Part shown: piece after piece, positions 19,802 to 22,520 of the stretch | Layout: each line of letters starts with the position of its first letter | Position numbering within the stretch: position 1 is the stretch's first letter | Assembly (NCBI RefSeq): GCF_013004595.1 | Contig: NZ_JABEMC010000001.1 | Span: forward strand, 62,001-126,000 | Length of the DNA stretch: 64,000 nt | Reading direction: 5' to 3' | Origin: Brevibacterium luteolum | Lineage (GTDB): Bacteria > Actinomycetota > Actinomycetes > Actinomycetales > Brevibacteriaceae | The notes under the pieces: generated by a model | Told to the model about the DNA's origin: nothing | Seen by the model: only the letters and a program-made list of their open reading frames with translations | Database searches by the model: none | Program-made: the position numbers and the translations under genes

Positions 19802-20644
19802 TCATCGGTTGGCTTCACCGAGGTGTCTGGCGATAGCTTCGCCTAGGGAGTGAAGGTGCCGTAGCTTAATCGGGCCATTCTGCGGCGTCGAACCGCTGGC
19901 GGGGATAGGCCACAACCCGGAGCGAAGGCACATGACCTCGAATGTATCGGTGAACTTCTCGGCTTTGTTGTCGCTGGTGTATTCCAACGTCAGGGTCGCG
20001 TCGACCGGCATCCCCAGCGGGCCGGTGACTTCGTCGCCATCGCTGTCCACGAAGGTCATGTCCGAATCGGGATCGTGCCTGATGTGCCAGATGATCCGTA
20101 GGGACGATCCGGGCAGCAGTGTTCGCGGCGTAGTAAACATCTCGACGACAGATTTGGTGACAACGTCGGTTCGATTAGTCTCGGGAACGTACTCAATTGT
20201 CAGGTCCCGTGCTGCTGAACGCCCGTAGTTGGTGATCCGAAGATCGAACACATCAGCACTGGCAAGACCGGGCACCACCTCAACACCGACGTAGGGTCGG
20301 TGCGCCCGATGCGAATCGAGCGCTGCTTGCCTGTTCGCTTCTTCGGCCGCCGCGCTCGCCCTCTGCGTGGCTCGGCTGGATTCCTGACTGGCTTTCATCG
20401 TGCGCGCACCGATAGCGGCAGCCCAGATTGCGGTGGCGAGGAGGCCGATCGAGGTGAAGGAGCTCACGAGTGACGTGATGAGGGACGTGGTGCCGCCGGC
20501 GCCCCACACGATGGCGACCGAGGCGACCGTGACCGCGAGGCCAGCGGCAGTCCCGAAGCTGAACCACAGCACGCGCGTAGGAACCAGATCAGTTGGCGTA
20601 TCAGGCACAGGTGTCTGTTCGGGAAGGTCTGGTGTTTGACTCAT
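19802..20644 (-). CDS. Prophage cargo membrane protein (2 TM, helical stalk, beta-rich C-terminal domain)
   Basis: ATGA coupling with the upstream lipoprotein stop at 20641-20644; two hydrophobic helices. Confidence 0.75.
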   Translation of the reverse strand: MSQTPDLPEQTPVPDTPTDLVPTRVLWFSFGTAAGLAVTVASVAIVWGAGGTTSLITSLVSSFTSIGLLATAIWAAAIGARTMKASQESSRATQRASAAAEEANRQAALDSHRAHRPYVGVEVVPGLASADVFDLRITNYGRSAARDLTIEYVPETNRTDVVTKSVVEMFTTPRTLLPGSSLRIIWHIRHDPDSDMTFVDSDGDEVTGPLGMPVDATLTLEYTSDNKAEKFTDTFEVMCLRSGLWPIPASGSTPQNGPIKLRHLHSLGEAIARHLGEANR

Positions 20645-21165
20645 AGGTAGGGTGACCATTCGGTGAGCTTGGTTTGCAGGTCTTTCATGGTGCTGGCGAG
20701 GCGGTGGACTTCACCGAGGCAGCCGTCGTCAGAGTCGCAGTCGACTTCTCCGAATGCTTCGCCGGCATCGGAAGCAGCCTTGGCGGTCTCGACAGTCTCC
20801 TCGTATAGCGCGGCGATCTCTTCTGGCGGCTCGCCGAGGTAGTTGGTGCTTTGTTCGGAGGTGAGCCCGTTGAGGCCGAGGTAGGCGGACTCCGCGGTGT
20901 ATCCTCCGGCGACGGCGTAGGCGTGGCAGTCGGCCGCGCCTTGATCGACGGCGATGGAGGAACAGGTTGCCTCCTCCCAATCGGTGATCCAGTCGTCGAT
21001 GTCGTGCTTGACGCCGGCAACTTTGCTAGCGAACTGCTGCACGCTCGCTTCGCCTCCTCCGCGCTCGTCTCCGCTTGCGCCGTTGTCGTCGGACTGCTCG
21101 TCGCTGCTGCAGCCTGTGAGCGCAATGAGGGCGGCGACGGTCAGGGCGGTGATGGTTTGTCGCAT
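20641..21165 (-). CDS. Prophage cargo lipoprotein
   Basis: Signal peptide with lipobox LTG-C; acidic; four additional Cys; RBS aagga. Confidence 0.85.
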   Translation of the reverse strand: MRQTITALTVAALIALTGCSSDEQSDDNGASGDERGGGEASVQQFASKVAGVKHDIDDWITDWEEATCSSIAVDQGAADCHAYAVAGGYTAESAYLGLNGLTSEQSTNYLGEPPEEIAALYEETVETAKAASDAGEAFGEVDCDSDDGCLGEVHRLASTMKDLQTKLTEWSPYL

Positions 21166-21214: not shown

Positions 21215-22003
21215 TCACGCGGCCAGACTGTCGATGGCCGAGCGCATCTGTGACTCGTCGATCTCGGTGTAGAGCGCCGTGGTTGAGAGCTGTGCGTGCC
21301 GCAGGAGCTCCTGGACGACGCGCAGGTTCGCGCCTCGGCGGAGCATCTGAGTGCCGTAGTAGCGTCGCAGGCTGTGTGCGGAGCCTTTGACGCCGGCCCG
21401 GCGCATGGCCTTGCCGATCGTGTCCGAGGCGGAGTTGGCCTTCATGTGCCCGTCGCCCGATGGAAACCAGTAGCCGGCCGCGGGCATTGTGCCGGCTAGT
21501 TCGCGGATGACGTCGGAGAGCGGGAGGCGTGCGATCACACCGCCCTTGCCTGCGACGGTGAGCGTGCCGAGGTCGAGGTCGACGTCCTCTGCTCGCACCT
21601 TGACGATCTCGTGGACGCGCAGGCCCTGGTAGGTGGCGAGCAGGATCATCGCCCGCGTCCGTCGCCGCATGGGCGCTCGGGCGAGACGCTGCACGTCGAC
21701 GGTGCTGACCGTGTGCTGGCGGGAGCGGGGCACGCGCGGGTTCGGCAGCTTGTCGACGGGGTTGGTGTCGAGGTAGCCCATGTCGACGGCCCACGTGTAG
21801 AACGCTTTGACGTGGTTGCGGTAAGTGCGCCGGGATGAGTTCGACAGCTCGGGGCGGCCGAGCTCGGCCAGCAGCGCGGCACGTGAGGCAGTCAAGGGGT
21901 TGCCGAGTCGGCTGACGAAGGCGGAGCGCTCGACGATGGTCCGCTCTGAGAGCCCTTGTGCCGTCATCCAGTCGACCCACTCTGAGAGGACAGGGGAAGT
22001 CAT
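21215..22003 (-). CDS. int: Tyrosine integrase, short arm-less type, C-terminus -LAA
   Basis: Catalytic R (GLRVHE), K (GKGG), HxxR (HSLR), H (LLRH), Y (TALY); about 262 aa from ATG 22003 (alternative start 22051); adjacent to att. Confidence 0.92.
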   Translation of the reverse strand: MTSPVLSEWVDWMTAQGLSERTIVERSAFVSRLGNPLTASRAALLAELGRPELSNSSRRTYRNHVKAFYTWAVDMGYLDTNPVDKLPNPRVPRSRQHTVSTVDVQRLARAPMRRRTRAMILLATYQGLRVHEIVKVRAEDVDLDLGTLTVAGKGGVIARLPLSDVIRELAGTMPAAGYWFPSGDGHMKANSASDTIGKAMRRAGVKGSAHSLRRYYGTQMLRRGANLRVVQELLRHAQLSTTALYTEIDESQMRSAIDSLAA

Positions 22004-22047
22004 GTGCAGAATTGTGCATGACCCGTCCGTGGAACGTGAGAGCTGGG

Positions 22048-22323
22048 TCACAGTTGTGGCCTATCTGTGACCGTGCCGTTACGCTCCCGTAGCTCCTCAT
22101 CGCGCAACTGATCAGCCCACCTGTGCAGCTCTCCGACGCGCGCTTCTATCTCAATGGAGACCTCGCGGTAGACCGACACATCGTCCGGCAGCGCGGGCTC
22201 GTCGGCTGCGACCCGGTACGCGATCGACCGAGCGCATGAATCCTGGAGGCGGTGCAGCTGCTCAAGGCTGAGAGTGTCTAGATCGAGGGCCGCTCGGATT
22301 CCGCTGGCGCTGAACGTGGTCAT
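22048..22323 (-). CDS. Hypothetical helical protein between the att site and integrase
   Basis: RBS gaaagga before ATG 22323 (alternative ATG 22344 overlaps the repressor-tail stop). Confidence 0.6.
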   Translation of the reverse strand: MTTFSASGIRAALDLDTLSLEQLHRLQDSCARSIAYRVAADEPALPDDVSVYREVSIEIEARVGELHRWADQLRDEELRERNGTVTDRPQL

Positions 22324-22340
22324 GATCGACTGTCCTTTCG

Positions 22341-22433
22341 TCATGCCGCGCTGGGGTGCGGCAGGGCGGGTGATAGATGGCGGATCGCGGACAGAACCGC
22401 AACCTTCGGATCAGAAGGTTGGGGGTTCGAATC
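22341..22433 (-). other. Orphan 3' end of the phage repressor gene (att core plus degradation-tag tail)
   Basis: Minus frame reads DSNPQPSDP-KVAVLSAIRHLSPALPHPSAA* across the att core. Confidence 0.75.
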
Positions 22434-22448
22434 CCTCGTGGCGCGCCA
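22407..22448 (+). other. attR: 3' half of a tRNA-Arg(ACG)-type gene
   Basis: cggatcagaaggtt-gggggTTCGAATccctc-gtggcgc-g-cca gives anticodon 3' side, T arm, acceptor strand and CCA; no D arm or 5' half upstream. Confidence 0.88.
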
Positions 22449-22451
22449 ACT

Positions 22452-22484
22452 GAAACCGCCGCCCGGAAGCCGGGCGGCGGTTTC
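22452..22484. terminator. Hairpin terminator (original tRNA terminator, also convergent with actP)
   Basis: Perfect 15-bp inverted repeat gaaaccgccgcccgg / ccgggcggcggtttc. Confidence 0.85.
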
Positions 22485-22520
22485 GCTATTCTGCTCTGGC
22501 CTGCAGAGATGCTGAGTCGC

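Follow-up and report, generated by a model that had tools for sequence, protein, structure and literature searches.

A candidate integration-dependent immunity cassette at a tRNA-Arg(ACG) gene in a Brevibacterium luteolum prophage

At the right end of a prophage in a 64,000-nucleotide stretch of the Brevibacterium luteolum genome (the window), a minus-strand frame runs through the 3' half of a tRNA-Arg gene and on into phage DNA, raising the question of whether the 21 codons beyond the junction are a tail cut from the phage repressor by integration. Such integration-dependent immunity is the system of mycobacteriophage BPs (cluster G), known since 2013 (PMC3694055, PMC4557955, PMC9262239). Its defining features and the BPs tRNA-Arg junction are given in PMC9262239. 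According to PMC3694055, where the excision route is left open, mycobacteriophages share the switch with “prophages of various bacteria.” The initial annotation, made at attR, had proposed that the same BPs-type recombination-as-switch logic operates here in a non-mycobacterial host. The attL repressor, its frame, its TAG stop, and a rebuild of attP support this proposal: the locus is very probably the attR half of an integration-dependent immunity cassette of the BPs/Brujita type, carried by a 40.5-kb siphoviral prophage, with the tail cut off the repressor by integration.

The prophage and its host

Among 32 ORFs scanned, the gene families of the prophage included terminase, portal, head-tail, major tail, tape measure, and antirepressor genes. 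To the left of attR lie the tyrosine integrase, an amidase lysin, and tail genes, and to the right lies a host sodium:solute symporter gene. A host outside the mycobacteria, as annotated, is borne out by the prophage tape measure, which is closest to those of Brevibacterium aurantiacum phages, and by the host genome (100% complete), in which no Pks13 match exceeded the cut-off. Of the 72 species in the host's family, 69 belong to a single genus.

Junction sequences and the repressor gene at attL

The attR common core, 40 bp corresponding to the 3' half of tRNA-Arg(ACG), occupies window positions 22407-22446 (plus strand), the last phage-specific base being 22406, and a tRNA scan of the window called no tRNA at the attR site. 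An identical partner, marking the prophage left end, was found 40,474 bp upstream on the same contig, outside the window (G000:C1:43933-43972), inside an intact tRNA-Arg(ACG) gene (C1:43899-43972) of the kind that had been expected there. Sequence comparison showed no difference between the two copies across the 40 bp, and in sequencing run X2 the core was assembled as a separate 40-base contig.

On the minus strand, the frame at attR reads ...ATRDSNPQPSDPKVAVLSAIRHLSPALPHPSAA*, with its TGA at window positions 22343-22341 and an AAG codon at 22406-22404; written out, the same frame is ...DSNPQPSDP-KVAVLSAIRHLSPALPHPSAA*, which agrees with the annotated reading. At window position 22406, attR has a T and the attL tRNA-Arg(ACG) gene an A, and the codon is accordingly AAG at attR versus TAG in the reconstituted tRNA. 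The stop codon of the prophage repressor is supplied by the host base adjoining the core.

The gene that uses this stop is present at attL. An HTH repressor of 109 aa from its likely ATG (G000:C1:43930-44259, equivalent to L002:1501-1830, minus strand, outside the window) converges on the tRNA gene and ends DSNPQPSDP-TAG. This predicted HTH gene, with its frame and its TAG stop, is the decisive evidence for the cassette. The AA ending of the tail and the inverted repeat described below are each not decisive alone because of their chance levels: 1,394 of the 100,620 stop-ended frames of the genome end in AA (1.4%), and among 20,000 random stretches of 40 bp, 0.97% contain a perfect inverted repeat of at least 8 bp with a spacer of at most 10. 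The 109-aa repressor is a CI-type HTH protein (Pfam Phage_CI_repr, 2e-10; PHROG 2328, 1e-27), and among the best 50 of 152 records, nearly all of its phage matches were annotated as immunity or transcriptional repressors. Beside it, 98 bp away, lies a divergent Cro-like gene of 72 aa (HTH_17; L002:1929-2147, plus strand), which also matches excisionase families. By gene order, the repressor and integrase genes run in the same direction, and cro diverges from them over a short control region. Between the Cro-like gene and the antirepressor, a HIRAN-domain gene (L002:2260-2877, minus strand) lies against the lytic operon; it has weak PADLOC PDC-M03B matches (best, 1.6e-7) and is a possible defense gene.

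When attP was rebuilt in silico, all 41 of 41 crossover points in the core gave one and the same attP, in which the core falls within the repressor ORF. The repressor continues there for 21 more residues, to 130 aa, and ends SAA, yielding the in-frame fusion that had been anticipated. The cut-off tail itself, 21 codons ending SAA plus the TGA, occupies 22341-22406 (minus strand). The rebuilt attB is an intact tRNA, and the host tRNA gene is restored upon integration. The host side of attR (22447-22490, plus strand), consisting of the rest of the tRNA CCA end and a GC-rich host hairpin, matches the empty site in the relative G011, where attB (L054) contains one intact tRNA and is bordered by sequences that match both prophage flanks at 93-95% identity.

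Several further features of the tRNA site were observed. CCA is part of the 76-nt tRNA gene at the empty site, and the gene at attL ends CGA (74 nt called; G000:C1:43970-43975 versus window 22445-22448), so that the tRNA-Arg(ACG) of the lysogen would depend on CCA addition. Just past the rebuilt tRNA, the phage supplies a GC-rich hairpin followed by a T run (L002:1556-1592), which resembles the host hairpin (80% over 96 nt) and whose opposite strand encodes the PDGPDGG linker of the repressor, a motif also found in Purky and Hibiscus. A terminator scan at attL and attR called no site, although strong hairpins are present at both. Two intact tRNA-Arg(ACG) copies per genome were seen in G014 (L078/L079) and in G025 (L080), in the latter 1.6 kb apart.

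Integrase and the inverted repeat at the core start

The integrase gene (21215-22003, minus strand) encodes a tyrosine integrase of 262 aa from ATG, or 278 aa from a GTG at 22051, with an intact catalytic R-K-H-R-H-Y set (R128, K152, H209, R212, H235, and Y244). The protein has only SAM-like and catalytic domains, being armless, and its alignment with Brujita-type integrases begins at the first residues; its best phage matches were Purky, Brujita, and other cluster I/P/N integrases, at 42-46% identity. It terminates in SLAA, and because of this LAA ending, it is predicted to be unstable.

Downstream of the integrase (19802-21165, minus strand), two ORFs, one of 174 aa and lipoprotein-like, the other of 285 aa and hydrophobic in its N-terminal part, occupy the position of defense genes in cluster N prophages (PMC5559632); neither had a family match above the cut-off. 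Elsewhere in the genus, three integrases 43-46% identical to this one (L040, L041, and L042) were found with no tRNA core within 1.5 kb, and L041 sits in a long open frame behind a second integrase-like piece. In G064 (L043:1417-1490) and Arthrobacter phage Cole (L026:2412-2485), related integrases adjoin a tRNA-Arg(TCT) gene, which may relate to the tRNA-dependent lysogeny described in PMC10865867.

The 8-bp inverted repeat that had been annotated as bracketing the junction is present (22400-22421; arms at 22400-22407 and 22414-22421), but its left arm straddles the junction, and the repeat encloses the first 6-8 core bases. All six metagenome matches to the exact 20-mer (five distinct elements) adjoin integrases 43-45% identical to the query. 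The repeat is absent from the cassettes at the same tRNA whose integrases are about 30% identical, namely, those of BPs, Hibiscus, Bakery, G027, G030, and G056, and the cores of these six start 5 bp later. Because the repeat tracks the integrase clade, it is read as an integrase binding site, probably comprising the clade's core-type sites flanking a 6- to 8-bp exchange region at the core start. A role as a feature of the repressor switch was ruled out, since BPs, Hibiscus, Bakery, and the three same-genus cassettes lack it at the same tRNA.

Conservation of the tail ending among relatives

Nine named phage regions were compared, with Cole left out for want of a repressor beside its integrase, and all eight translated repressors end in AA or AS. 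Eight non-tRNA junctions have their frame set by an HTH gene, and seven of them (L012, L013, L037, L082, L085, L087, and L097; exception, L008) end in AA, VA, or AS against a background of 2.6%; the loci compared are kin, and L082 and L087 are near-identical, so these counts are not independent. Read in the same frame, the integrase-side remnants at L090, L094, L095, and L099 would also end in AA or VA. Excluded from the count were L032/L036/L038, L089, L092, and L093, which have no integrase in the flank examined, and L034/L035, which are tRNA-Arg(TCG) genes.

The best natural read-through control is the metagenome contig L097. There, an HTH gene crosses the same 20-bp inverted repeat with the PSDP-KV reading found in this window and finishes in AAA, and the integrase encoded behind it is 43% identical to the one here. 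In G030, of the same genus, the repressor is 69% identical over its HTH part and its tail ends LVA; attL, attR, and attP-type junctions were all assembled, a set that could derive from an excised circle or a tandem prophage. At L008 (3001-3330), a related repressor stops at a TGA inside the non-tRNA core copy and has no tail; no integrase match was found there in 6.3 kb, and the locus is possibly a tagless or relocated variant. In the element represented by L033/L096/L098, a variant of the core T-arm introduces a TAA into the DSNP frame ahead of the junction. The tailless L008 and this early stop imply that the core alone does not entail a tag. The same core variant was noted in L092 and L093.

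Prophages of the same genus with BPs-like integrases were observed at the same tRNA-Arg(ACG) in G027 (L081/L082), G056 (L086/L087), and G030 (L083-L085); two of the three share the BPs frame through the core (tail ending, SAAA), and one shares the frame of this window.

Proposed switch and alternative explanations

In the free phage, attP would lie inside the repressor gene, and translation through the antisense tRNA half would add 21 residues ending SAA. By analogy with BPs, the tagged long repressor and the tagged integrase would both be Clp substrates; with enough integrase surviving, the armless enzyme would recombine in the 40-bp core. The adjoining host base would then turn AAG into TAG, giving an untagged, stable 109-aa repressor and a restored tRNA. 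Integration would also move the tail, the 98-aa ORF, and int, which are presumably cotranscribed with the repressor in the attP form, 40 kb from the repressor promoter, fixing lysogeny and its immunity.

The viral repressor tail is ssrA-like by sequence, in that it ends SAA and the known members of the family end AA or AS. The host tmRNA tag ends ALAA. Against the comparison, SAA has no leucine where the LAA tag has one, and the tail is otherwise unlike the host tag. The host encodes a ClpX above the cut-off and two adjacent clpP genes, and the tail may act as a degron directing the repressor to ClpXP.

Integration might instead truncate a repressor that the tail weakens by a non-Clp route, such as oligomerization or promoter contacts, or whose long form is largely active. 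This is highly unlikely, although the full-length repressor of corynephage CyranoPS gave intermediate protection when overexpressed, the accessible text of that study does not contain “ssrA” or “ClpXP” (bioRxiv 10.64898/2026.10.29.762952), and overexpressed viral BPs repressor partly restores immunity (PMC3694055). Among the relatives, tails differ freely in sequence and in length (about 8-40 aa) but retain a terminal AA, VA, or AS. This pattern suggests recognition at the C terminus, and the integrases bear the same endings. Furthermore, the 136- and 103-residue forms of BPs gp33 are reported to bind DNA similarly, and A135E to stabilize the protein (PMC4557955).

The weakest alternative, that the tail is a by-product of an attP overlapping the repressor end in a prophage relic, with a chance AA ending, can appeal to the genomic frequency of such endings and to the lack of an excision signal from runs X2, X6, and X8 (of 23 listed), whose contigs break at the 40-bp core, where attP is not distinguishable from attL or attR, and could not show one (X2 depth, 42 for the prophage and 50 for the host), but it is scarcely credible beside the intact catalytic residues of the integrase, the terminase, portal, tail, and lysin genes, the identity of the core copies over 40 bp, the recurrence of the endings across relatives, and, more weakly, the synonymous nature of both tail substitutions in run X8 (a single contig at depth 3.2). 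A degron removed by integration, in a prophage that may still be active, is the preferred reading.

A 98-aa ORF and an operator-like heptamer

The canonical cassette comprises int, rep, and cro and has no directionality factor. Here an additional ORF lies between the tail and int (22048-22344, minus strand) and encodes 98 aa, or 91 aa from a second ATG. Its ATG overlaps the TGA of the long repressor (ATGA), and its TGA overlaps the in-frame integrase GTG (GTGA); in L012, L037, and L090, another ORF likewise starts on the stop of the tail. From its sequence, the ORF looks like a real gene. Its cluster has nine members at 90% identity, all without stops, and variable sites in three runs comprised four synonymous and three nonsynonymous ones. 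The predicted structure, a helical hairpin (pLDDT, 75), had no fold match among viral structures at an E value of ≤0.001, and the sequence had no match in annotated phages, Pfam, PHROGs, PADLOC, or NCBIfam. One 95% relative was found among seven candidates of 53-172 aa, and a 50% library yielded only this relative and two short matches inside 1000-aa proteins. Assignment to DUF6158, an Atlas lead, was rejected (score of 0.81, within chance; unconfirmed by Pfam), as were a relative in L079 (28% match; E value, 0.006), which was not recovered as a clean ORF, and kinship with CaptainKirk2 gp41, which proved unrelated on comparison.

A tentative operator-like site (22001-22018, minus strand) consists of the heptamer TGCACAA (22012-22018) and a second copy, TGCACA, at the integrase ATG. 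The prophage holds four copies of the heptamer (TTGTGCA), three in the rep-cro control region outside the window and one about 9 bp before the int ATG; 35 of 1,000 shuffles also gave a shared 7-mer at both places. The control region of G030 repeats the same heptamer motif, and its copy near int lies in int coding DNA. An operator at int as a general feature was not upheld: of the 14 cassettes, 5 had a shared 7-mer, compared with about 0.7 predicted by base shuffles, which ignore dinucleotide bias, and two of the five include start-codon context or fall in coding DNA, leaving only a lead.

An unlikely reading of this interval is that the integrase has its own leaderless promoter under a TGCACAA operator common to rep-cro, derepression leading to integrase synthesis and excision, and that the 98-aa gene, coupled to the stop of the long repressor and expressed mainly from the attP form, is a state-dependent partner of the integrase or repressor. 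Broussard and Hatfull proposed an intermediate with a promoter between rep and int, followed by a directionality factor (PMC3694055). If the reading were true, an int with its own promoter plus the 98-aa gene would represent such an intermediate, and it would address how such prophages excise.

Comparison with known systems

As in BPs, attP lies inside rep, attB falls in the tRNA-Arg core used here (the T-arm sequence is also present in the annotated BPs attP), the host base beside the core makes the stop, and rep and int share a direction with cro divergent. Both cassettes have a 4-bp overlap at the stop of the long repressor, but the overlapping gene is int in BPs and the 98-aa orphan here. 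They also differ in the frame through the tRNA (DSNPQPSDP-TAG here and FEPPTF-TGA in BPs), in the core (40 bp here, reaching 5 bp further into the anticodon arm, and 35 bp in BPs), in the tail (21 versus 33 aa), and in their integrases, which are 31% identical.

Brujita and the phages of clusters I, P, and N (PMC8138268, PMC9635641) share with this prophage an integrase that lacks an arm-binding domain, ends AA, and is 42-46% identical, a repressor that reads through the antisense T-arm and ends AA, and an antirepressor shortly after the cro-like gene. Unlike the tRNA-Arg used here, the target of cluster P phages is tRNA-Thr (PMC9635641, PMC8138268), and Brujita, Purky, and Redi have no ORF between rep and int.

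A non-mycobacterial host is also shared with the Gordonia phages Wizard/Bakery, Hibiscus, UmaThurman, CaptainKirk2, and GMA5 (PMC5559632, PMC4929511). Bakery and Hibiscus use the same tRNA-Arg core in the same RDSNP frame. In CaptainKirk2, gp41, an unrelated gene of 86 aa, overlaps the repressor stop by 4 bp, as does the orphan here, and gene 18 of GMA5, which lies between int and rep and has no assigned function, provides a precedent for the insertion (PMC5559632). The Gordonia cores start 5 bp later than the one in this window, and the integrases are 31-39% identical. Of 27 Gordonia phages whose attP had been identified, about half were reported to show features of the switch (PMC5559632), and the tRNA-Arg attB is conserved in many actinobacteria (PMC4929511).

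The same logic was described for Bifidobacterium prophages Bb423phi2/689b-1, likewise by an in-silico attP rebuild, with an 18-aa tail (PMC6109161), and for CyranoPS of Corynebacterium glutamicum, with a 15-aa tail, where the truncated repressor protected better (bioRxiv 10.64898/2026.10.29.762952). These differ from the present case in being small phages with other tRNA targets (Met and Lys) in other hosts.

Significance

The novelty outside the mycobacteria implied by the initial annotation does not hold, because the switch has been published for Gordonia and Bifidobacterium and tested in C. glutamicum (PMC3694055, PMC5559632, PMC4929511, PMC6109161, bioRxiv 10.64898/2026.10.29.762952). Among the literature matches listed, no paper addressed it in Brevibacterium; supplements, such as the Gordonia attP table, may treat prophages of this genus, inverted repeats, or int promoters. 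The mechanism is not new, and the cassette adds a further actinobacterial genus to the known range of the switch. It also shows that a single tRNA-Arg(ACG) site is reused by unrelated prophages in different reading frames and with different integrase clades. The case would gain weight if excision proved to be under the control of the operator-like site at int or of the inserted gene. The cassette is a clean worked example of the switch and may serve as an integration vector for Brevibacterium.
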